From NCBI GenBank assembly GCA_963839295.1, contig CAWIUK010000013.1:67603-131602 (forward strand): a stretch of DNA of 64,000 nucleotides, read 5' to 3'. Below, piece after piece: positions 2,838 through 28,940 of the stretch. The notes beneath the pieces were generated by a model. That model saw only the letters and a program-made list of their open reading frames with translations, ran no database searches and was not told the DNA's origin. Source of the stretch: an uncultured Acidobacteriota bacterium (lineage in GTDB: Bacteria > Acidobacteriota > Thermoanaerobaculia > UBA5066). Numbering within the stretch: the first letter of the stretch is position 1; each line of letters starts with the position of its first letter. The translations under genes were made by a program, and so were the position numbers.

Positions 2838-3584
2838 TCAGCCGAAGTCGACGACGAGCGGGGCGTGGTCGCTCGTGCCGAAATCGCGGTGGACGCGCGC
2901 GGCCGTGGCCGTCTTCGCGAGGTCCGCGCTCGCGAGGACGAAGTCGATCCGCCAGCCGATGTTCCGCTCCTTCATCTGGCGCCACGGGGCCCAGTACGTG
3001 AAGAGGTCGTCGTTGTCCGGGTCGAGCGCGCGGCCGACGTCCACGAGGCCCTCGGCGATCACCTTCTCGAGGAGCGCCCGCTCGTCCGGCCGCTGGCCGA
3101 TCGCGTTCGCCTTGCGCTCTTTCGCGTGGACGTCGCGGTCGGTCGGGGCCACGTTCAGGTCGCCGCAGACGAGGAGGGACCGGCCCGCGCCCTTCGCCGC
3201 GCGCGCCCAGCCGGCCATCGCGTCGAGGAACGCGAGCTTCGCGGCGTAGTCCTTGCCGCCGTTCGGGACGTAGACGGAGGCGACGGAGAACTTCGGCGTC
3301 GCGGCCTCGACGATGCGCGTCTCGTGGTCGAAGTCGGGATGCGAGAAGCCCGCGGCCTCGCCGAACGTCGCGGTCTTCAGGAGGAGGCCGACGCCCGAGT
3401 AGCCCTTGTGCCCGTGCCAGTAGGACGCGTAGCCCGCGGGCGCCGCGAGCGAGATCGGCATCTGCTCGGGCGCCGCCTTCAGCTCCTGCAGGCACACGAC
3501 GTCCGGTGCGTGCGTGTCGAGGAACTCCAGCACCTGCAGCTCGCGGGCGCGGATGCCGTTGACGTTCCAGGTGACGACCTTCAC
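2838..3584 (-). CDS. xth: Exodeoxyribonuclease III (AP endonuclease)
   Basis: KVVTWNVNGIRAR, CLQELK, YVPNG, GDLNVA, GWRIDF, SDHAP; GTG start overlaps the upstream TGA. Confidence 0.95.
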   Translation of the reverse strand: MKVVTWNVNGIRARELQVLEFLDTHAPDVVCLQELKAAPEQMPISLAAPAGYASYWHGHKGYSGVGLLLKTATFGEAAGFSHPDFDHETRIVEAATPKFSVASVYVPNGGKDYAAKLAFLDAMAGWARAAKGAGRSLLVCGDLNVAPTDRDVHAKERKANAIGQRPDERALLEKVIAEGLVDVGRALDPDNDDLFTYWAPWRQMKERNIGWRIDFVLASADLAKTATAARVHRDFGTSDHAPLVVDFG

Positions 3585-4276
3585 GTGAAGAGCTCCGCGA
3601 AGCGCCGGGCGAGGGCGGGCGCGGCGCCCTCCTCCTCGTGCTTGAAGAAGACGTACGCCTCGTCCCATCCTGCGCCGCGGACCTTGTCGGCCCACGCGGC
3701 GAGGTCGGCGTCGCCGTAGTCCTCGCGCCGGAGCCTCAGGTACCCCCACGGCGCGGTGGCCTCGAACGGCGTCACGCCCTTCTCGTCGTCGGCGACGCAC
3801 AGTGCGGCGCCCGCCGACTTCAGGAGCGCGAAGACCTCCGCGTCGAGCCACGTCGGGTTGCGGAACTCGAACGAGGCCTTCACGTCGGACGGCAGGAGCG
3901 CGAGGAACGCCGCGAGGCGCGGGACGTCCTTCTTGAGGTTCGGGGGGAGGCCGTAGAGGACGGGCCCGAGCTTGTCGCCGAGCTGTCGGGCCGCGCCGAG
4001 GAGGAACTTGACCTCGCCGTCGGCTTCCTTGAGGCGCTTGATGTGCGTGATGCGCTGGGAAGCCTTCAGCGCGAACCGGAAGCCCGCGGGAACCTGCGCG
4101 GCCCAGCCCGCGAGGAGCTCCGGCTTCGGCATCCGGTAGAACGTGTTGTTGATCTCGACCGCCGGGAGCTTCGTCGCGTAGAACTCGAGCCGGCCGGCGG
4201 CGGGCAGGTCCTCGGGATAGAACGTTCCCGCCCAGCCGTCGTAGCTGAACCCGCTCGTGCCGGCGAAGAGCCTCAC
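3581..4276 (-). CDS. DUF72 (YecE/YunF) family protein
   Basis: GTSGFSY..W..FYP, VEINNTFYRMP, FEFRN..W, YLRLR, YVFFKHE; GTGA overlaps on both sides. Confidence 0.92.
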   Translation of the reverse strand: MRLFAGTSGFSYDGWAGTFYPEDLPAAGRLEFYATKLPAVEINNTFYRMPKPELLAGWAAQVPAGFRFALKASQRITHIKRLKEADGEVKFLLGAARQLGDKLGPVLYGLPPNLKKDVPRLAAFLALLPSDVKASFEFRNPTWLDAEVFALLKSAGAALCVADDEKGVTPFEATAPWGYLRLRREDYGDADLAAWADKVRGAGWDEAYVFFKHEEEGAAPALARRFAELFT

Positions 4277-5121
4277 GTTCGCACCCGTTTCGGGGGTGGA
4301 GCGGGCTTGCGGACGACGACGACCGAGACGTTGTCGGGCGCGCCGGCCTCGAGCGCGGCGTTCACCAGGGCCTGCACGGCTTCCTCGGGCGGGCGCGAGG
4401 CGAGGATCGTCTCCATCTCGAGCTCCTCGACGACGCCGTGGAGGCCGTCCGTGGCGAGGAGGAGCGTCGCGCCGTCGGGCCACGGGCGCCAGAAGAGGTC
4501 GACCTCGACGGCGTCCCTCGTCCCGAGCGAGCGCGTGATGAGGTGGCGAAACGGCGACGTCTCGGCGGCGTCGGCCGGCACGAGGCCGCGCCGGATCTCC
4601 TCGGCGAGGTACGTGTGGTCGCGGCTGACCTGCTCGAGGCGCCCGTCGTTCATCAGGTAGGCGCGGCTGTCGCCGATGTTCCCGACGAGGAGCCACCGGC
4701 CGAGGACGAGCGCCGCGACGAGCGTCGTCCCCATGTTCGGCAGCGTGCGCGCGTCCTCGCCCTTCCCGACCGTCTCGGGCTTCGCGAGGACGCCCGCGCG
4801 GCGCACCGCCGTGTTCGCCGTGAGGATCGCCTTCCGGAACATCTCGACGGGGTCGCCGGGCGAGTTGTAGAAGGTGGCGTAGAGCACGTCGATCGCGAGC
4901 TTGCTCGCGATCTCGCCCCGCGCGTGCCCGCCCATGCCGTCGGCCACGGCAAAGAGCGCGCCGCGCGCGGCGAGGCGCGACGGGCTCCCGACGAGCGGCG
5001 CGAGCCGCTCCGGGTCGCCGATGTAGTCCTCGTTGGCCGGCCGGACCCTGCCGACGTCCGACAGGCTGGCCCACGCGAGGGGGGGCGGCTCGACGCGCGA
5101 AGGTTCCGGCACGGACCGCAT
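4273..5121 (-). CDS. PP2C/PPM-family Ser/Thr protein phosphatase
   Basis: SDVGRVR.NED, VADGMGGH, MGTT, NIGDSRAY, LATDGL, DNVS. Confidence 0.93.
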   Translation of the reverse strand: MRSVPEPSRVEPPPLAWASLSDVGRVRPANEDYIGDPERLAPLVGSPSRLAARGALFAVADGMGGHARGEIASKLAIDVLYATFYNSPGDPVEMFRKAILTANTAVRRAGVLAKPETVGKGEDARTLPNMGTTLVAALVLGRWLLVGNIGDSRAYLMNDGRLEQVSRDHTYLAEEIRRGLVPADAAETSPFRHLITRSLGTRDAVEVDLFWRPWPDGATLLLATDGLHGVVEELEMETILASRPPEEAVQALVNAALEAGAPDNVSVVVVRKPAPPPKRVRT

Positions 5122-21724: not shown

Positions 21725-22075
21725 CTACGTGCCCGGGCCCAGCGCCGCCTCGCCCCGTTCGCCCGTCTTGACGCGGAGGGCCTCGAGGACGGGCAGGACG
21801 AAGACCTTGCCGTCGCCCCGGCGGCCCGTGTGGCCGGCGCGGTAGAGCGCCTCGACGAGCGCGTCCGCCTCGTCGTCGCGACAGACGATCTCGACGCGGA
21901 TCTTCTTCGTCATCTCGACGCCGAGGTGCTCCCGGTGCTCGGGGTGCGAGGCGTCGTGCTCCTGCCCGAAGCCGCGCGCGTCCGAGATCGTGAGGCCGTG
22001 CGCGTGCGATTCCGAGAGGGCGTCCACGATCGCGAAGAGGCGGTCGGGCGGAAAGAAGCCGAGGACGTAGCGCAT
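21725..22075 (-). CDS. P-II family signalling protein with His-rich T-loop
   Basis: GLTISDARGFG, KIRVEIV, AGHTGRRGDGKVFVLPV..ALRVKTGERG; ATG overlaps the czcA stop. Confidence 0.9.
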   Translation of the reverse strand: MRYVLGFFPPDRLFAIVDALSESHAHGLTISDARGFGQEHDASHPEHREHLGVEMTKKIRVEIVCRDDEADALVEALYRAGHTGRRGDGKVFVLPVLEALRVKTGERGEAALGPGT

Positions 22076-25000
22076 CAGTATTCCTCCTCCTCGCGTTCGA
22101 AGAGCTCGTAGAGGACGGGCAGGACGAAGAGCGTGAGCAGCGTGGCGGTCACGAGGCCGCCGATGATGACGACGGCGAACGGGCGCTGGGTCTCGGCGCC
22201 CACGGCGTGCGAGAGCGCGGCCGGCAGGAGCCCGAAGGCGGCCATCGCGGCCGTCATGAGGACGGGGCGGAAGCGCGTGAGCGCTCCCTCCGTGACGGCC
22301 TCCGCGAGCCCCCGGCCCGTCCGGCGGAGCTCGCGGATGCGCTCGACGAGGAGGACGCCGTTCTGGACGGAGACGCCGAAGAGCGCGATGAAGCCGACGA
22401 GGGCGGAGACGGAGAGCGTGAGGCCGGCGAGGGGGAGGGCGAAGAGGCCGCCGACGGCCGCGAAGGGCACGTTCAGGAGGATGAGGGTCGCGAGGCGCGG
22501 CGAGTCGAAGGCCGCGAAGAGGAGAAAGAAGATCGCGGCGAGCGTGATCGGGAGGACGACCATGAGGCGCTTGAGGGCGCGCTGCTGGTTCTCGAACGAG
22601 CCCGTCCACTCGAGCCGGTAGCCGGGCGGGAGCTTCACGGCGGCGTCGACCTTCTTCTGCGCCTCGGCGACGAGCGAGCCGAGGTCCCGGCCGCGGACGG
22701 AGAGCTTCACGGCGATGCGGCGGGAATTCTCCTCGCGGAAGACGCGGGCCGAGCCCGGCGCGAGCCGCACGTCCGCCACGGAGCCGAGCGTCAGCTTCTC
22801 GCCGTTCGGCCCGAGGATCGGGATCGCGCGGATCGACTCGAGGCCCGTCACGGCCCCCGGGTCGACGCGCACGACGAGGTCGAACGTCTTCTCGCCCTCG
22901 AGGATCTGCGTCGCGACCGCGCCGCCGAGCGCGGTCTCGATGACCGTCTGGACGTCCGAGACCGACAGCCCGTAGCGGCCGATCGCCGGGCGGTCGACCG
23001 AGATCTGGACCTGCGGCTGGCCCGCGAGGCGCTCGGCCGCGACGTCGGCGGCACCCGGCACGGTGTCGAGGACGGCGGCCGTCCGGTCCGCGAGGTCCTG
23101 CAGGACGGCCGGGTCCTCGCCGAAGATCTTCACGGAGAGCTCGCTCTTGATGCCGGACACGGCCTCGTTCACGTTGTCCTCGATCACCTGCGAGAACGTG
23201 AGCTCGATCCCGGGGATCGCGGACAGCTTCCGGTTCATGGCGTCCGAGAGCGCGTCGCGCGTCCTGGCGGTCGTCCACTTCTCGCGGGGGAGGAGGTCCA
23301 CGTAGAGCTCCACCGTGTCGAAGCCGTTCACGTCGGTGCCGTCGTCCGGGCGGCCGAGCTGGCTCACGATCGTCGTCACCTCCGGAAAGGACGCGAGCGT
23401 CGTGCGGATCTGGCGCGTGAGGCGGCCGGCCTCGGACGGCGAGATCGACCCGGGAAAGGTCGCGCGCACCCAGAGCGCGCCCTCGTCGAGCTTCGGGAGG
23501 AACTCGGAGCCGAGGAGGAGCGCCGTGCCGACGCCGGCGGCGAGGAGCGCGGCCGACGCGGCGACGGCGGCCTTCCGCCGGCCGAGGACCCAGGCGAGCG
23601 CGGGCCGGTAGGCGCGCGTCAGCAGGCGGACGGTCGCGGACTCGGCGTCGTGCCCGGACGCGTGCCCCTCGCCGCGATGCCTCACCGCGAAGCTCGCGAG
23701 GACGGGAACGATCGTGAGCGCGAGGACGGTCCCCCAGAGAAGCGCGAACGTGAGCGTCAGCGCCATCGGCCGGAAGATCTTTCCCTCCACGCGCTGGAGC
23801 GTGTAGAGCGGCAGGAACGCCGTGATGAGGATCGCCTTCGAGAAGAGGATCGGCTTGCCGACCTCGCTCGTGGCCTGGACGATCGCGGCCGAGAGCGACC
23901 GGACCTTTCCACCCCGCTCCTCGAGGATCCGCAGGAGGTTCTCGACGACGACGACGGCCGAGTCCACGATGATCCCGAAGTCGATCGCCCCCATCGAGAT
24001 GAGGTTCGCCGGGATGCCGCGCAGGTCGAGGAGGAGGAACGCGCCGAGGAGGGAGAGCGGGACGACGGCCGCGACGACGAGCGCCGAGCGCGCGTTCGCG
24101 ACGCCGAGGAACGCGACGAGAACGACGAGGACGAAGCCGATCCCCTCGACCATGTTCTTGCGCACGGTGTGGAGCGTGCGGTCGATGAGCGCGGTCCGGT
24201 CGTAGTGCGGGACGATCCTCACGCCGGGCGGGAGGCCGCCGGCGTTCATCTCGGCGACCTTCGCGCGGACGCGTTCGAGGACCTCGAGCGCGTTTTCGCC
24301 CTTGCGCAGGAGGACGATCCCCTGCACCACGTCGTCCTCGTCGGCGCCGCCCACCGTCTTGCCGACGCGGCCGAGCCGGATGCGCGGGCCGACGCCCGCG
24401 GCGGCGACGTCGCGGATCCGGATCGGCGTCCCGTTCCGCGTCGCGACGGCGATCTCGCCGATGTCGGCCGTCGACTGGACGAGCCCGAGGCCGCGCACGA
24501 CGTACATCTCGGAGCCGTGCTCGATGTACGCCCCGCCGGCGTTCCGGTTGCCCTTCGAGAGCGCGTCGAAAACCTGCGGGAGCGTGAGGCCGTAGGACTT
24601 GAGCTTCAGCGGGTCGACGTTGACCTGGTACTGCTTGGTCGGGCCGCCGAACCCGACGACGTCCACGACGCCGGGAACCGTCCGGAGCTTGCGCTCGACG
24701 ACCCAGTCCTCGAGGGACTTCAGCTCGAGCGGCGAGAACCCGGGCGGCCCGACGACCGTGTACCGGTAGATCTCGCCGACCGGGGTCGAGTCCGGCGAGA
24801 GGTTCGCCTGCGCTCCTCCGGGAAGGACGACGGACTGAAGGCGCTCGAACGCCTGGTTGCGGACGTAGGCGCGGTCCGCGTCGTCCTCGAAGACGATCGT
24901 CACGACGGAGAGCCCGAAGATCGAGATCGAGCGCATCGAGGCGCGCTTCGGGATCCCGTTCATCTCGTTCTCGACGGGGATCGTGACGAGTCGCTCGACC

Positions 25001-25179
25001 TCCTCGGCCGCGTGGCCCGGGAAGAGCGTGATGATCTGGACCTGGACGTTCGTGACGTCCGGGTAGGCCTCGACGGGGAGGCGCACGAACGCGAACACCC
25101 CGAACGCGACGAAGACGACGAGGAGCGCGAGGACGATCACGCGCCGCCGGAGCGCCCAGGCGACGAGCGCGCGGATCAC
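22075..25179 (-). CDS. czcA: Heavy-metal efflux RND permease, CzcA type
   Basis: LPVEAYPDVTNVQV, GEIYRY, GAIDFGIIVDSAVVVVEN, EGKIFRPMA, EFLPKLDEG, RFRPVLMTA; 1034 aa. Confidence 0.93.
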   Translation of the reverse strand: MIRALVAWALRRRVIVLALLVVFVAFGVFAFVRLPVEAYPDVTNVQVQIITLFPGHAAEEVERLVTIPVENEMNGIPKRASMRSISIFGLSVVTIVFEDDADRAYVRNQAFERLQSVVLPGGAQANLSPDSTPVGEIYRYTVVGPPGFSPLELKSLEDWVVERKLRTVPGVVDVVGFGGPTKQYQVNVDPLKLKSYGLTLPQVFDALSKGNRNAGGAYIEHGSEMYVVRGLGLVQSTADIGEIAVATRNGTPIRIRDVAAAGVGPRIRLGRVGKTVGGADEDDVVQGIVLLRKGENALEVLERVRAKVAEMNAGGLPPGVRIVPHYDRTALIDRTLHTVRKNMVEGIGFVLVVLVAFLGVANARSALVVAAVVPLSLLGAFLLLDLRGIPANLISMGAIDFGIIVDSAVVVVENLLRILEERGGKVRSLSAAIVQATSEVGKPILFSKAILITAFLPLYTLQRVEGKIFRPMALTLTFALLWGTVLALTIVPVLASFAVRHRGEGHASGHDAESATVRLLTRAYRPALAWVLGRRKAAVAASAALLAAGVGTALLLGSEFLPKLDEGALWVRATFPGSISPSEAGRLTRQIRTTLASFPEVTTIVSQLGRPDDGTDVNGFDTVELYVDLLPREKWTTARTRDALSDAMNRKLSAIPGIELTFSQVIEDNVNEAVSGIKSELSVKIFGEDPAVLQDLADRTAAVLDTVPGAADVAAERLAGQPQVQISVDRPAIGRYGLSVSDVQTVIETALGGAVATQILEGEKTFDLVVRVDPGAVTGLESIRAIPILGPNGEKLTLGSVADVRLAPGSARVFREENSRRIAVKLSVRGRDLGSLVAEAQKKVDAAVKLPPGYRLEWTGSFENQQRALKRLMVVLPITLAAIFFLLFAAFDSPRLATLILLNVPFAAVGGLFALPLAGLTLSVSALVGFIALFGVSVQNGVLLVERIRELRRTGRGLAEAVTEGALTRFRPVLMTAAMAAFGLLPAALSHAVGAETQRPFAVVIIGGLVTATLLTLFVLPVLYELFEREEEEY

Positions 25180-26324
25180 TTCTTCTCCCCGGCGGACGAG
25201 AAGAGCGACGAGAGGAGGAGGCTCCCGTCCGTGACGACCCGCGCGCCTTCCGGAAGACCGGAGAGAACCGGGACCTTCCCGTCGCGCTCGGGCCCGACCG
25301 TCACGCGCGTCCGCCGGAACCGCGACGGCCCCGCCGCGACGAAGCAGACGCGGCCGGCGCCGTCCGTCAGGATCGCGCGGGCCGGGACGACCGTCGCCGG
25401 TCGCGGGGACTTCCCGGAAACCTCGACGGTCACGTACATCTCGGCCTTGAGGAGACCGGCGGCGTTGTCGACGGCGCCGCGGGCGCGCACGGTGCGCGTC
25501 GCGGGGTCGAGCGCGTCGCCGACGAGCTCGAGCCGGCCCTCGAACGTCCGGTCCGGCCACGCGGCGGAGCGGATCGCGAGGCGGTCGCCGGGCGCGAGGA
25601 GCGCGAGGTCGCGCTCCGTCACGTCGAGCCAGACCCAGAGCGCCCGGGGGTTCGTCACGACGAAGAGGGGCACGGCGGCGTCGGGGCGCGCCTCCTGGCC
25701 GGGATTCGCGTTGCGCTCGACGACGACGCCGGGCAGGGGAGACGTGAGCCGGAAGAGCTGGTCGGGGCCTCGGGCGGGATCGGCGATCGCCCCCACGTCG
25801 CCGCCCCAGCGCGCGAGGCGCGCGGACGTGCGGGACGCCTCCGCGCGGGCGCGCGAGAGGTCCGCGTCGGCGGCGTCGAGGTCCTTGCGCGGCGTGGCGC
25901 CGCGTTCGTACAGGCGCGCTGTGCGCTCGCGGTTGCGCTGGGCGGCGGCGAGGTCGGCGGCGGCCCGGGCCGCGTCGGACTGCGCCTGGCCGTAGTCGGG
26001 GGACGAGATCTCCGCGAGGAGGTCGCCCGCGCCGACCCGCGCGCCGACCGGCCCCCGGAGCGCCACGATGCGGCCGGCGACCGGCGGGAAGACGCGCACG
26101 GTCGCGTCCTCGCTCCACGCGAGGCGGCCGGTCACGGCGACGGGCGGGGCGGACTCTTTCGCGGCCGCCTCCAGTCCGAGGGAGGCGAGCTGGGGTGCCC
26201 CGTCGGCGAAGGCGATCTCGTCGCCGTCCACGCGGGGCGCGGGCGCCTCCGCGGCGGGCGGCGCGGACCTGCCGCAGCCCGCGAGGACGGCGGCGAAAAG
26301 GACGGCACAGGTGGTCTTCTTCAT
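25176..26324 (-). CDS. czcB: RND periplasmic adaptor (membrane fusion) lipoprotein
   Basis: Lipobox LAGC, GRIV, helical hairpin, SPLPGVVVERN, DPATRTVRAR, LKAEMY. Confidence 0.88.
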   Translation of the reverse strand: MKKTTCAVLFAAVLAGCGRSAPPAAEAPAPRVDGDEIAFADGAPQLASLGLEAAAKESAPPVAVTGRLAWSEDATVRVFPPVAGRIVALRGPVGARVGAGDLLAEISSPDYGQAQSDAARAAADLAAAQRNRERTARLYERGATPRKDLDAADADLSRARAEASRTSARLARWGGDVGAIADPARGPDQLFRLTSPLPGVVVERNANPGQEARPDAAVPLFVVTNPRALWVWLDVTERDLALLAPGDRLAIRSAAWPDRTFEGRLELVGDALDPATRTVRARGAVDNAAGLLKAEMYVTVEVSGKSPRPATVVPARAILTDGAGRVCFVAAGPSRFRRTRVTVGPERDGKVPVLSGLPEGARVVTDGSLLLSSLFSSAGEKK

Positions 26325-27604
26325 TTCGTCTCCAGGGCGCCCGAAACGGCGAGGCGCGCGGCGCGGTAGTCCGCGTACGCGGCGGCGAGGTCTCCCTGCG
26401 CCGCGGCGGCGGCGATGAGGATGTCGTTGGCGTTGCGCTCGGCCTCGAGGAGCTCGAGGAGGGAGGAGCCGCCCTGTTCCCAGGCGTAGCGGACGGTGTC
26501 GCGGACGGACGTCGCCTTCGGGACGAGCTCGCCGCCGAGCCGCGCGGCCCGCGCGCGCGCGACGTCGAGCGCCTGACGCGTCGCCGCGAGGTCCTGCTCG
26601 GCTCGGACGCGGCCCCGGACGAGGTCGCGGCGCGCCGACTCGGCGGCGACGGAGGCCGCCCGGATCGCGCCTGCGTTGTGATTGAAGACGGGGATCGGGA
26701 ACGAGACGCCGAACCCGAACGTGTTCCGCTGGTCGGGCGGCTCGCGCTCGTACTGGACGAGGAGCGTCGGGTCGGGCACTCGGAACGCCTTCTGGAGGGC
26801 GAGGTCCGCGTCCGCGCGGCGGACGGCGGCGTCGAGCGCGAGGACGTCGGGCCGATTCGCGAGGATGGTCCCGTCCTGCGGCGCGGCGCCCGGCTCCCCG
26901 GCGCCGGCCGCGAGGGCGTCGAGGTCCTCCGCGAGCGCGACGGCGGGCCGGTTCAGGAGCGCGGCGAGGGCGCGCAGGGCGTTCCCGGCGGCGAGGTCGG
27001 CCTGCGCGGCATCCGCGAGGAACCTCCCGGCCGCGATCTCGACCTGCGCGCGGTCGGCGGCGGAGATGTCCCCTGCCGCCTCGCGTTCGCGCGCGATCGC
27101 GACCGATCGCGAGAATGAGGCCGCGGAGTCGCGCGTGAGCGAGGCGCTTTTCTCGGCGACCGCCGCCGCGACGTACGTCTTCACGACGGCGGCGTCGAGG
27201 AGGCGTCCGGCGTCCGCGAGGCGGGCGTCGGCGCCGGCGATCCCGGCGTCGGCCGAGGCCCGCCGGTTCGAACGCTTGCCGCCGATCTCGACGAGCTGGC
27301 CCGCCGACACGATCGTGTCGTACGTGCGGTCGTAGAAGCCGTTGCCGTGCACGGTGCCGGCGGGCGTGCCGTCCGTCGGGATCTTCGCCGTCAGGTAGGA
27401 CAGGACCGGGTTCGGAAGCGCGACCGCCTGGTCGCGCAGGGCCCGGGCGCCCTCGAGGTCGGCGCGCGCGGCGAGGAGGTCCGGGTTGCTCTCGCGCGCG
27501 AGGGCCACGGCCTCGGCGAGCGTCACCCGGGCGGGCTCGTCGCCGCGGGCGGGAAGCGCGGACGCGGCGAGCGCGCCCGCGATGAGGACGATCGCGGTCT
27601 TCAA
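26321..27604 (-). CDS. czcC: TolC-family outer membrane factor
   Basis: A..NPDL.AA, PNP, GGKR, PVFNHNAGAI, GGSSLLELLEA; TTG start behind GGAGGAG. Confidence 0.87.
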   Translation of the reverse strand: MKTAIVLIAGALAASALPARGDEPARVTLAEAVALARESNPDLLAARADLEGARALRDQAVALPNPVLSYLTAKIPTDGTPAGTVHGNGFYDRTYDTIVSAGQLVEIGGKRSNRRASADAGIAGADARLADAGRLLDAAVVKTYVAAAVAEKSASLTRDSAASFSRSVAIAREREAAGDISAADRAQVEIAAGRFLADAAQADLAAGNALRALAALLNRPAVALAEDLDALAAGAGEPGAAPQDGTILANRPDVLALDAAVRRADADLALQKAFRVPDPTLLVQYEREPPDQRNTFGFGVSFPIPVFNHNAGAIRAASVAAESARRDLVRGRVRAEQDLAATRQALDVARARAARLGGELVPKATSVRDTVRYAWEQGGSSLLELLEAERNANDILIAAAAAQGDLAAAYADYRAARLAVSGALETK

Positions 27605-27673
27605 GGTCTCCTCCGGCGGCGCACGGCGCCGCCTCGTCAGCGTCTTTCGGCGGGAAAGAGCTAGGAGAGGAGA
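27605..27673 (-). promoter_or_regulatory. Putative translational attenuator: anti-SD in the leader ORF 3' end pairing with the czcC SD, enclosing two hairpins
   Basis: mRNA anti-SD UCUCCUCU (27673-27666) is complementary to SD GGAGGAGA (27614-27607). Internal hairpins at 27643-27659 (6-bp stem) and 27615-27633 (8-bp stem). Confidence 0.6.
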
Positions 27674-28014
27674 GCCGGGGGGCCGCGCGCGGCGATGCCG
27701 CGGGGCGCGGGAGCGCAGGAGGCGAGGTCGCGGTTCGCGGAGGGTGCCGGGGCGACGGGGCGGGGAGAGGCCGCGGGCACGGCGTCGACGGGCGTGTCGA
27801 GGACGAGGAGCGAAGGCATGTCCGGGATGTCCGCTCCCCAGGCGCGGGGCGCGTACAGGTCCGGGCCGGGCGTGTTCGGGTCGTCCGCGAGCCCGGTGTT
27901 TCCGGCCGCGAGGTCCCTGAGGTCGTCGGCCAGCACCGCGCCGGCCCCGAGGACCGGGGCGAGGAAGGCCGCGACGAGGAGCGCGGCGGCGGAGCGGGCG
28001 GCAAAACGGCGCAT
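27661..28014 (-). CDS. Leader ORF with signal peptide and C-terminal RGPP motif (putative ribosome arrest peptide; CzcI/DUF2946-like position)
   Basis: MRRFAARSAAALLVAAFLA signal, Asp/Pro-rich middle, ends ARGPPALLS*; TACAAT -10-like box 17 nt upstream of the ATG. Confidence 0.7.
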   Translation of the reverse strand: MRRFAARSAAALLVAAFLAPVLGAGAVLADDLRDLAAGNTGLADDPNTPGPDLYAPRAWGADIPDMPSLLVLDTPVDAVPAASPRPVAPAPSANRDLASCAPAPRGIAARGPPALLS

Positions 28015-28112
28015 GGCGATCCGGGCCGTGGATTGTACGCAGGTCCGGTGCCGGGACTCTGTCTCCGTGCCGCGTTTCGAACTACGATGCGCGGCGGGAT
28101 GGGTGCCCGGCC

Positions 28113-28940
28113 GTGAAAGATCTCTCCGAAGTCCTCGCGACGGAAGGCGAGATCGTGCGCCTCGATCCCGACCACCCGGGCTTCAAGGATCCCGTGTACC
28201 GCGCGCGCCGGAACGAGATCGCCCGGCTCGCGCTCCAGTACGGGGCCGGAGACCCGATCCCGCGCGTCGACTACACGTCCGAGGAGCAGGCCGTGTGGCG
28301 GCTCACGTGGGAAAGGCTCTGGCCCCTGCACGAGACGCATGCCTGCTACGAGTGGCTCGAGAGTTCGAAGGTCCTGTCCCTCGACCGCGCGAGTGTCCCC
28401 CAGCTCGCGGACGTGAACGTCACGCTCGAGCGCTCGGGGTTCCGCATGCTGCCCGTCGCGGGCCTCATCCAGGGCCGCGGTTTCCTCTCCGCGATGTCGC
28501 AGGGCGTCTTTCTCTCGACGCAGTACATGCGGCACCACTCCGTGCCGTTCTACACGCCGGAGCCCGACGTCATCCACGAGCTCGTCGGGCACGCGGCGAG
28601 CCTCTTCCATCCCGACATCGTCCGGCTCTCGCGCCTCTTCGGCGAGGCGGCCTCGCGCGCGAGCGACGAGGCGATGAAGCGGCTCGAGCTCGTCTACTGG
28701 TACACGCTCGAGTTCGGGCTCGTCGAGGAAAGGGGCTCGCTCCGGACGTACGGCGCGGGCGTCCTGTCGTCGTTCGGCGAGATGGAACGCATGACGACGG
28801 AGGCCGAGCTCCGCCCGCTGGACTTCGCGGACGCGTCGGCGCGCCCATACGACCCGACGCGCTACCAGCCGGTCCTGTACGTCTCGCCGTCCTGGGACCG
28901 GATGGTCGCGGACGTGTCGGACTGGCTGAAGACGATCTGA
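28113..28940 (+). CDS. phhA: Phenylalanine 4-hydroxylase (pterin-dependent aromatic amino acid hydroxylase)
   Basis: [54 protein letters not shown]. Confidence 0.93.

Follow-up and report, generated by a model that had tools for sequence, protein, structure and literature searches.

The DNA considered here ("the window") is a 64,000-nucleotide stretch from an uncultured Acidobacteriota bacterium (contig CAWIUK010000013.1, positions 67,603 to 131,602), and the subject is a 117-codon open reading frame (ORF) that directly precedes an efflux operon of the heavy-metal-efflux resistance-nodulation-division (HME-RND) class. This ORF appears, with somewhat better than even confidence, to be the leader of the pump operon and to encode a ribosome-arresting peptide that is exported by Sec and belongs to the RAPP/RGPP class (the estimate refers to the arrest-leader part of this reading). 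The weight of the case comes from conservation in relatives, not from the single window sequence. Comparison is what supports the stalling-leader interpretation, which an earlier sequence-only reading of this DNA had put forward, and it is quite likely that the product, designated P0001, functions as an arrest-peptide leader. That the cue it senses is a metal is a tentative suggestion, on which the chances lean the other way.

What singles out arrest is the peptide, not the RNA. The C-terminal core of 75 full-length homologs is RGPP in 70, RAPP in four and QGPP in one, with 2-5 residues between it and the stop. Down to ~40% identity, and between variable flanks, 74 of the 75 retain R[GA]PP; distant members end, for example, in ...SRGPPAA, ...DRGPPSSR, ...GRGPPAFL, ...SRAPPGLDS, ...SRAPPAA and ...PRAPPAFLAV, and the tails that follow R[GA]PP come in 39 different versions among the 75 homologs. 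The R, G, P and P codons vary synonymously between loci, and the constraint therefore acts on the peptide. In a 41-member alignment (A1), R110, P112 and P113 are invariant and G111 occurs in 90% or more; RAPP is found in one member. Over RGPP the majority-residue share is 0.99, over the signal peptide 0.79 and over the tail 0.41 (values for the remaining segments are in Table 1). RAPP and RGPP are described by Fujiwara et al. 2025 (EMBO J; PMC12992588) as the most robust arrest cores, refractory to elongation factor P (EF-P), and as enriched near the C-terminus of small secretory proteins encoded upstream of genes that include metal-homeostasis genes. Because the only cores found besides the one QGPP are these two, the strongest according to that report, the conservation of R[GA]PP counts for arrest. 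The sequence-only reading had staked its proposal on RGPP being conserved among such leaders, and it is.

Elsewhere in the window's own genome (G000) the motif is avoided. Coding-like ORFs (selected by a crude ORF filter) contain 9 RGPP where 34 are expected, a depletion of ~4-fold, and 27 RAPP where 54 are expected; AGPP is mildly depleted (40 observed, 52 expected) and AAPP is not (111 observed, 82 expected). Of the small exported ORFs that end in R[GA]PP, P0001 is the one convincing case in this genome (as judged with a crude GC3 filter, that is, by G+C content at third codon positions). The depletion of RGPP and RAPP in G000 echoes a proteome-wide avoidance of these motifs reported by Fujiwara et al. 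2025 (PMC12992588).

A second constraint on the peptide is one of length. The TPGPD motif of the exported segment and the Arg of the core are 62 residues apart in 71 of the 75 homologs, and 60-63 apart in the whole set, despite a poorly conserved linker. The 49-residue exported segment itself (residues 27-75) contains 17 invariant residues. None of the invariant or at least 90% conserved columns of the 41-member alignment is Cys or His; the single Cys of P0001 (C99) is replaced in other clades.

The leader ORF is a genuine coding gene, because its position-specific G+C content (GC1/GC2/GC3 = 0.81/0.63/0.92) resembles that of neighbouring genes (0.79/0.55/0.95 in the next gene), and the GC3 signal is bounded by the leader ATG at its start and by the leader stop at its end. 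(The genome is 70.6% G+C, so that open frames by themselves carry little meaning, and many long spurious ORFs occur in the window.) The translation, MRRFAARS...IAARGPPALLS, agrees with what had been read from the letters: a signal-peptide-like N-terminus, MRRFAARSAAALLVAAFLAPVLGAGA, is followed by an Asp-rich stretch, a Pro/Ala-rich stretch, RGPP, four residues and the stop, with one Cys and no His, and without a CxxC motif. P0001 matches no Pfam or NCBIfam family, and DUF2946 is matched by 0 of the 41 aligned members at E <= 10. Cleavage of the signal peptide is likely between AGA and V, as judged by the -3/-1 rule. Export is predicted to be by way of Sec rather than Tat because the twin Arg varies among homologs (MRQ and MRP occur in its place), and the Tat pathway was rejected on this ground. 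The AlphaFold2 (AF2) model of the leader is helical over residues 2-36 and coil beyond residue 36, with a mean predicted local distance difference test score (pLDDT) of 67.7 and a predicted template-modelling score (pTM) of 0.25, and shows no globular fold for the mature part. The lack of a fold is more in keeping with a nascent-chain sensor than with a folded periplasmic protein.

The family is narrow in distribution, because an exhaustive profile search of 1.84 billion representative proteins found it in 12 clusters only. A word-indexed search returned 71 homologs at E <= 0.01, with 54-91% identity; both of those with a source name are labelled 'Thermoanaerobaculia bacterium'. In all, 82 proteins were fetched and 7 dropped (four C-terminally cut fragments, two frame-shifted chimeras and one filamin protein) to give the 75 full-length homologs. 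The filamin-repeat protein, P0081 (1192 aa), had entered through the profile search by way of 7 matched stretches and represents a spurious low-complexity match. The leader is present in 11 of 41 whole genomes of relatives (the window's own included), all 11 belonging to one genus, and absent from 16 of 16 genomes of the two other families of the order. It has been found so far in Thermoanaerobaculia-type Acidobacteriota. A search of sequencing runs gave 24 rows of DNA metagenomes, none with as many as half of the sampled words, and no RNA run.

Leader and pump operon occur together. In the 24 genomes of the genus that were searched for both the leader and the orthologous outer-membrane factor (OMF) gene, which is the first gene of the pump operon proper, 10 have both, 14 have neither and none has one alone. 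(G044, a twelfth OMF-positive genome, lay outside the leader search; locus L013, at matching coordinates, carries the leader.) The order leader, OMF, membrane-fusion protein (MFP), RND transporter holds in 27 of 27 loci with an OMF match, as far as each locus extends. Thirty loci were collected, and these reduce to 18 distinct junctions between the leader and the next gene, which is the OMF gene in 17 and a porin gene in one (L030). The intergenic distance is 55-68 nt in the 17 OMF junctions and 83 nt in L030. The OMF start codon is GTG in 14 of the 17 and TTG in three, and never ATG; the weak TTG start that had been noticed in the window belongs to this pattern.

The end of the leader message is complementary to the ribosome-binding site (RBS) of the OMF gene. 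As the sequence-only reading had noted for this gene (its czcC), the tail codons GCU CUC CUC UCC (27675-27664) hold UCUCCUCU (27673-27666), which is complementary to the Shine-Dalgarno (SD) sequence GGAGGAGA (27614-27607) with seven Watson-Crick pairs and one G-U pair. The 121 nt of mRNA from 27705 to 27585 fold into a three-way junction of -59.1 kcal/mol (z = -3.1, with 0 of 200 shuffles as stable), in which the anti-SD:SD helix is accompanied by two hairpins, H2 and H3. Both of the hairpins that had been proposed here are present in the minimum free energy (MFE) fold; the one given as 27615-27633 is H3 exactly, and the one given as 27643-27659 is only the core of H2. An H2-equivalent hairpin is found in the MFE folds of 17 of the 18 distinct junctions (all except L023), with sequences that differ between classes.

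Sequestration of the RBS is retained while the sequences that bring it about change. In the MFE folds of all 18 distinct junctions, 5-8 of 12 RBS bases are paired with the 30-nt zone that a ribosome stalled at RGP/P would occupy. In the window's clade the partners are UCUCCUCU:GGAGGAGA. Others are GGCUCCUUCU:GGAAGGAGCC (an uninterrupted run of ten pairs, the anti-SD being one codon further 3'), GCUCCU:AGGAGC, the stop codon plus GAGCC:GGCUCUUGAG in L023, and, in L030, CCUGCC (from the codons just before Arg) with GGCAGG of the porin RBS. At least four different sequence solutions are thus predicted to pair the RBS with mRNA inside the stall footprint, and conservation of the anti-SD, like that of RGPP, had been anticipated. 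The longest contiguous tail:SD helix, compared with 5000 random coding windows from G000, gives P <= 0.05 in 11 of 18 junctions, 0.05-0.1 in five and >0.1 in two (the junctions are related, and these P values are not independent). Repeated re-invention of complementarity, with both strands changed and the tail peptide free, speaks for selection on pairing. From a MAFFT alignment of 17 of the 18 junctions (L030 was left out for its length), RNAalifold recovered only H3 and a 3-bp helix; it missed the anti-SD helix because the anti-SD lies one codon further 3' in one clade, which puts the columns out of register. RBS pairing was therefore assessed by folds of each locus and helix statistics.

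Several observations weigh against this interpretation, and most of them concern the RNA. The 201-nt context retains the local structure, yet has z = -1.4 only. The window's own 8-bp tail:SD helix reaches only P = 0.035, two junctions have P > 0.18, and the windows of the helix null were drawn from G000 alone. The duplex energy between footprint zone and RBS is no better than that of random coding windows, the fraction at least as stable ranging from 0.03 to 0.67 (29.65% for the window's own duplex). The energy of pairing between the 30-nt footprint zone and a 14-nt RBS was discarded as a discriminating statistic, random windows being its equal. Masking the stall footprint raises the mean probability that the SD core is unpaired only from 0.12 in free mRNA to 0.38 (from 0.02 to 0.24 at the window locus, in the model), which is partial support for the freeing of the RBS that the sequence-only reading had proposed; a ribosome terminating at the stop gives 0.39. 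Because a terminating ribosome opens the SD equally in the model, the RNA fails to separate arrest from coupling: by itself it would fit arrest control and ordinary translational coupling alike.

Other difficulties lie with the peptide and its genomic company. One homolog, P0079 of the L030 clade, has QGPP in place of the RGPP of the nearly identical L030 protein; the change is due either to sequencing or assembly or to loss of the arrest Arg in nature. There is no recognised metal-binding site, with no conserved Cys or His and no Pfam match at E <= 10. (A likeness of DNPxTPGPD to thrombospondin-type-3-like calcium motifs was dropped, Pfam giving it no support at E <= 10.) The module is not tied to efflux, because the leader of the distant relative L030 precedes a porin gene and not a pump. 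This L030 homolog (2501-2761) is 40% identical to P0001 and ends in ...TCRGPPAPFV; the porin gene (2845-4401; Porin_4, 4e-26) begins 83 nt further on.

The proposed mechanism is as follows. In free mRNA the OMF RBS would be paired with the last leader codons. A ribosome translating the leader would stall at RGP/P with the first Pro codon of the pair (P112; 27681-27679) in the P site. With a footprint of the usual size, the stalled ribosome would cover ~27695-27666 and thus hold the anti-SD. Beyond the footprint would lie H2, H3 and the SD, and the SD and the weak TTG, 50-60 nt downstream, would be open to a second ribosome or 30S subunit. The MFP, RND and P-II-like genes would then be translated through coupling at their overlapping start codons (ATGA, GTGA, TGATG), so that arrest would turn the whole pump ON. 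The assignment of P112 and P113 to the P and A sites follows, by analogy, the ApdA and ApdP structures as reported in PMC10951233.

At arrest, the variable spacer of fixed length would fill the exit tunnel and the path to or through the translocon, with the acidic segment 27-75 outside. (Residue 48 is 64 residues and the DIPDMP motif 45-50 residues from the P-site residue.) The duration of arrest would be set by the pulling force of export, as modulated by a periplasmic cue acting on residues 27-75; by analogy with copper for CutF, divalent metal cations that are substrates of the pump would be the most likely cue. A more ambitious extension of this scheme, which we regard as doubtful, is that the Asp-rich, Cys/His-free segment (ADDxxD, DNPxTPGPDLY, DIPDMPxL) is a new nascent-chain sensor that binds hard or borderline divalent cations through carboxylates and is tethered by a fixed spacer to an RGPP-arrested ribosome. 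It would give an RND pump a metal response without a transcription factor, and would constitute a portable envelope cation switch that, placed also before a porin gene in a sister clade (L030), could govern routes of exit as well as entry across the outer membrane.

Ordinary coupling is the core of one explanation that competes with arrest: the mature product could be a small periplasmic protein that acts on the pump post-translationally, the pairing at the RBS serving translational coupling and RGPP being kept for a reason other than stalling. CzcI is a precedent, being a small periplasmic protein encoded directly upstream of czcC that is reported to quench pump activity (PMC10127602). The equal opening of the SD by terminating and stalled ribosomes suits this explanation as well as it suits arrest, and conservation of the exported segment (0.89) favours a functional mature protein. 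In a search based on language-model features, nearby clusters carry the automatic names DUF2946 (0.95, without a common Pfam family) and CzcI (PF28244; 0.91); these neighbours are a lead towards analogy or very distant kinship only. P0001 gives no match at E <= 10 to any family in the copy of Pfam used (the presence of PF28244 in that copy was not verified). CzcI is described in PMC9973294 as being without a C-terminal proline motif, whereas in the present family R[GA]PP, 2-5 residues from the end in 74 of 75, is the most conserved feature of all. Nor would a folded protein require fixed spacing between sensor and motif across a free linker; AF2 offers no fold for such a protein, and RGPP is avoided elsewhere in the genome. 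A CzcI-like mode of action is rather unlikely on this evidence. A random open frame in G+C-rich DNA, with the pairing as a by-product of composition, has a negligible probability: long spurious ORFs are common here and random windows give equally strong RBS duplex energies, but the in-frame GC3, the 71 protein homologs with synonymous change at conserved residues, the fixed motif spacing, the conserved promoter-like element (below) and the co-occurrence of leader and operon without exception in the genomes compared exclude it for practical purposes.

The arrest may also be real and its principal output transcriptional, the stalled ribosome preventing Rho-dependent termination before or inside the OMF gene and unmasking of the RBS being secondary. 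In the leader mRNA that precedes the stall site (27826-27645), C makes up 54-59% and G 23-28%, and the C/G ratio is 2.0-2.4, compared with a mean of ~1.2 in the pump genes; such C-rich, G-poor composition is rut-like, and the tract could serve as a Rho loading site that adds polarity. An untranslated OMF message would, moreover, lie open to Rho. CruR sets the precedent, its C-terminal RAPP arrest being reported to block Rho-dependent termination (PMC9426467). On the other hand, the intergenic region here is 55-83 nt long and filled by two stable hairpins, compared with the 162 nt given for CruR (PMC9426467), and it is to the SD specifically that complementarity is conserved. Being upstream of the stall position, the C-rich tract is left uncovered by the stalled ribosome, and its C-richness is a consequence of Pro, Ala and Ser codons. 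Rho as the main target is unlikely, and the two outputs are not mutually exclusive. Improbable, too, is a secretion or envelope monitor in the sense of SecM and VemP, in which Sec export would release arrest and the operon would be induced by impaired export or outer-membrane biogenesis and not by metal binding. A signal peptide together with a C-terminal arrest motif is the architecture reported for monitoring substrates (PMC7897499, PMC10987492); the leader has no Cys/His site, and in the two known genomic contexts (OMF and the L030 porin) the gene that comes first under control specifies an outer-membrane protein. Yet no Sec, YidC or Bam component is encoded downstream, where the genes are those of a substrate pump or a porin; the exported segment, 49 residues long and invariant at 17 of them, exceeds what a passive export handle needs; and leaders of this kind near metal genes are tied to metal sensing by Ozturk et al. 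2023 (PMC9973294) and by Fujiwara et al. 2025 (PMC12992588). The arrest-peptide leader that opens the RBS of the pump operon is the reading that we retain.

Table 1. Coordinates of the leader, its regulatory elements and the pump operon in the window
Feature	Coordinates	Strand	Evidence or remark
Extended -10-like promoter element TGCGTACAAT	28032..28041	-	17 nt 5' of leader ATG; same distance in 17/18 distinct loci
Leader gene, first of operon	27661..28014	-	Translation; GC3 0.92; 71 homologs at E <= 0.01
Signal peptide, residues 1-26 (MRRFAAR n-region, hydrophobic core, GAGA c-region)	27937..28014	-	Sequence inspection; AF2 helix 2-36
Conserved exported segment, residues 27-75 (VLADDLRD..TGLADxPxTPGPDLY..W.xDIPDMPSLLVLD); candidate sensor	27790..27936	-	Majority-residue share 0.89; AF2 coil
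Pro/Ala-rich spacer, residues 76-109 (variable 76-94; semi-conserved pre-arrest 95-109, RDLA..AP..R.I.A)	27688..27789	-	Majority-residue shares 0.45 (76-94) and 0.62 (95-109)
RGPP motif, residues 110-113 of 117	27676..27687	-	RGPP 70, RAPP 4, QGPP 1 in 75 homologs; codons vary synonymously
Anti-SD GGCUCUCCUCUCC (last base of Pro113 codon and tail codons ALLS)	27664..27676	-	Pairs with 27614-27605 in MFE fold; longest contiguous helix 8 bp
Hairpin H2, stem includes leader UAG stop (27663-27661)	27638..27663	-	MFE and centroid folds
G+C-rich hairpin H3 (GGCGGCGC-CGU-GCGCCGCC), directly 5' of SD	27615..27633	-	MFE fold; RNAalifold
SD strand GGAGGAGACC of OMF gene, paired in free mRNA	27605..27614	-	MFE folds
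OMF gene, CzcC/TolC family, TTG start at 27604	26321..27604	-	Pfam OEP 5.5e-35; weak IhpA, NodT and TolC matches, each below cut-off
MFP (adaptor) gene	25176..26324	-	HlyD_D23 4.3e-37; RND_mfp 154.7 bits, above cut-off; ATG overlaps OMF stop (ATGA)
HME-RND transporter gene, CzcA/ZneA-like	22075..25179	-	TIGR00914 972 bits (cut-off 701); GTG overlaps MFP stop (GTGA)
P-II-like gene, last of operon	21725..22075	-	Pfam P-II 7.6e-18; weak DUF3240; ATG overlaps RND stop (TGATG)

The downstream operon (OMF, MFP, RND and P-II-like genes, on the same strand and starting 56 nt 3' of the leader) is of HME-RND (CzcCBA) type, consisting as it does of a CusA/CzcA-family RND transporter, an adaptor and an outer-membrane factor. 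The closest solved relative of the transporter is ZneA, which is described as CzcA-like (823 bits; CusA scores 601 bits), and its sequence contains DFGIIVDSAVVVVEN, a putative match to the Asp/Asp/Glu motif of CzcA-type pumps. Since the other start codons overlap the preceding stops (ATGA, GTGA, TGATG), the OMF RBS is the sole free-standing one in the pump operon. The P-II-like protein is probably made in step with the pump because its ATG overlaps the RND stop codon. Control of heavy-metal RND pumps is usually ascribed to two-component systems or to MerR/ArsR-type regulators; the 13 neighbouring ORFs scanned, a subset of those in the window, include no metal-responsive transcription regulator. 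The upstream neighbour, a phenylalanine-hydroxylase-like gene, is transcribed in the opposite direction. Prediction of a complex between leader residues 27-80 and adaptor residues 25-384, run without controls, gave no verdict (score 0.00).

The -10-like element in front of the leader is of a TGCGTAnnAT type that varies in its hexamer (TACAAT, TAGAAT, TAAAAT, TAAGAT, TAGGAT or TAACAT; GGGTACAAT in L024). Because it is found 17 nt before the ATG in 17 of 18 loci, the leader probably stands at the head of the transcript; this placement suggests a very short 5' untranslated region, with the element as the putative promoter. A scan of 27400-28300 for sigma-70 and terminator consensus sequences found no full promoter and no terminator. 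Just 5' of TGCGTACAAT lies a near-palindrome (in the region 28032-28058, minus strand), which is imperfect in the window and is found likewise in L002, L003, L013 and L023 (GTCCGG-N3-CCGGAC in L013). It is confined to the window's clade and absent in the other; its position is compatible with that of an operator.

A second CusA/CzcA-family operon of the same genome, on contig C5, is also preceded by a small signal-peptide ORF (L039:481-861, plus strand), with its OMF ATG at L039:932 and its RND gene at C5:35845-39081. The ORF has a Cys-rich stretch (CGGPAPMDCCAGMGDDGGSAPCPC), a Pro/Ala linker and a C-terminus that reads ...APRARSAPLFLLFSVLLV, and matches no Pfam family at E <= 10. Two copies of CCUCGUC, in its CU-rich last codons and around its stop, are complementary to GACGAGG of the OMF RBS, which lies 70 nt downstream. 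It looks like a leader of the CutF/CzcI type without a canonical RAPP.

What gives the junction its interest is that the operon's only free-standing RBS is closed off by the last part of a leader with the strongest arrest core known. If arrest is true, RGPP/RAPP leaders extend to a Zn/Co/Cd-type pump and to the Acidobacteriota, and the sensor half of such leaders can be exchanged for one that lacks thiol and imidazole chemistry. Some 120 codons plus 56 nt would then make up a compact system for signalling from the periplasm to the peptidyl-transferase centre by way of the translocon and the exit tunnel, and the fixed 62-residue spacing is a direct handle on the question of how the periplasm communicates with the ribosome. 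If there is only translational coupling and a CzcI-like protein, the finding is an ordinary one. The case widens the sensor repertoire of RGPP/RAPP leaders and opens no new category.

Among known systems, the set of RAPP/RGPP arrest peptides (ApdA, ApdP and the Streptomyces lividans set, as presented in PMC12992588) shares with the leader its small size, an N-terminal localisation signal, R-[AG]-P-P near the stop and a position upstream of a co-directional gene. P0001 has the core near its C-terminus and is a small protein encoded upstream of, and co-directionally with, its neighbour, the signal peptide being recognised by inspection and by the AF2 helix. The downstream classes named for that set are Sec genes, TonB-dependent receptors, YcnI, PCu(A)C, PepSY, DsbA and thioredoxin (PMC12992588); 'efflux' and 'RND' have 0 occurrences in the main text of that paper, whose appendix lists may hold the leader family. 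The metal-linked examples given there have conserved Cys/His, and arrest of the set is reported as demonstrated by experiment (PMC12992588); the Acidobacteriota leader family has neither residue conserved and is known from sequence comparison.

CutF of Rhodobacter capsulatus (PMC9973294; preprint 10.1101/2025.02.05.636593) is described as having a Sec signal, a periplasm-exposed sensor, a C-terminal proline motif, an RBS-shielding stem and a short intergenic region, all of which the leader shares or is predicted to share. Binding of copper to the exposed motif is reported to delay export, with the result that stalling lasts longer and the stem covering the cutO RBS melts (PMC9973294). CutF-like leaders are defined by Ozturk et al. 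2023 (mBio, PMC9973294) as proteins of <150 aa that have a signal peptide and PP among their last 15 residues, are followed on the same strand after a short spacer and show jackhmmer homology, and their commonest downstream neighbours are given as OEP genes of RND systems. P0001 falls within the rule-based part of this definition (117 aa, PP at 112-113, a signal peptide by inspection and a same-strand neighbour 56 nt away, where the limit is 1000 nt), and its family departs from the DUF2946/CutF-like family on both counts by which that family is recognised, in that it has neither the DUF2946 match nor a conserved Cys/His metal site. Cys and/or His sites are reported for 29 of 29 CutF-like clusters, whose members are mostly from Pseudomonadota and Bacteroidota (PMC9973294); the present leader family has neither residue conserved and comes from Acidobacteriota. 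The present leader, moreover, combines an RGPP/RAPP core with a pump that is ZneA/CzcA-like and not Cu-linked.

CruR of Bordetella pertussis (Roy et al. 2022, mBio, PMC9426467) is reported to be exported, to have RAPP three residues from its end, to keep the spacing between sensor and RAPP fixed within 1-2 residues and to depend on the motif for its output. Its CXXC lies at a place similar to that of DIPDMP in the leader (45 intervening residues in CruR according to PMC9426467; 43-48 residues before R110 here). In contrast, CruR is described as a DUF2946 protein with CXXC in which copper relieves arrest, Rho-dependent termination operates over a 162-nt spacer and a TonB-dependent importer is regulated (PMC9426467). 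SecM-secA of Escherichia coli, in the account of PMC10951233, has in common with the leader an exported product whose C-terminal arrest (at RAGP, which is related to RAPP) exposes the stem-held RBS of the next gene; SecM regulates the secretion machinery itself, and the leader precedes a metal pump. CzcI of Cupriavidus metallidurans shares the gene position, being encoded directly upstream of czcC and co-transcribed with czcCBA (PMC10127602); it differs in being reported as a mature pump quencher (PMC10127602) that is described as having no proline motif at its C-terminus (PMC9973294).

A full-text literature search found RGPP stalling linked to efflux pumps only in the CutF and CruR papers; the supplementary lists of Ozturk 2023 and Fujiwara 2025 may hold the family. 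RAPP/RGPP arrest peptides before metal genes (PMC12992588) and CutF-like leaders before RND outer-membrane genes (PMC9973294) are already known from these reports. What the Acidobacteriota leader would add to them is a thiol-free sensor family with neither a DUF2946 match nor a Cys/His site, a ZneA/CzcA-type pump as the regulated target and an Acidobacteriota host.

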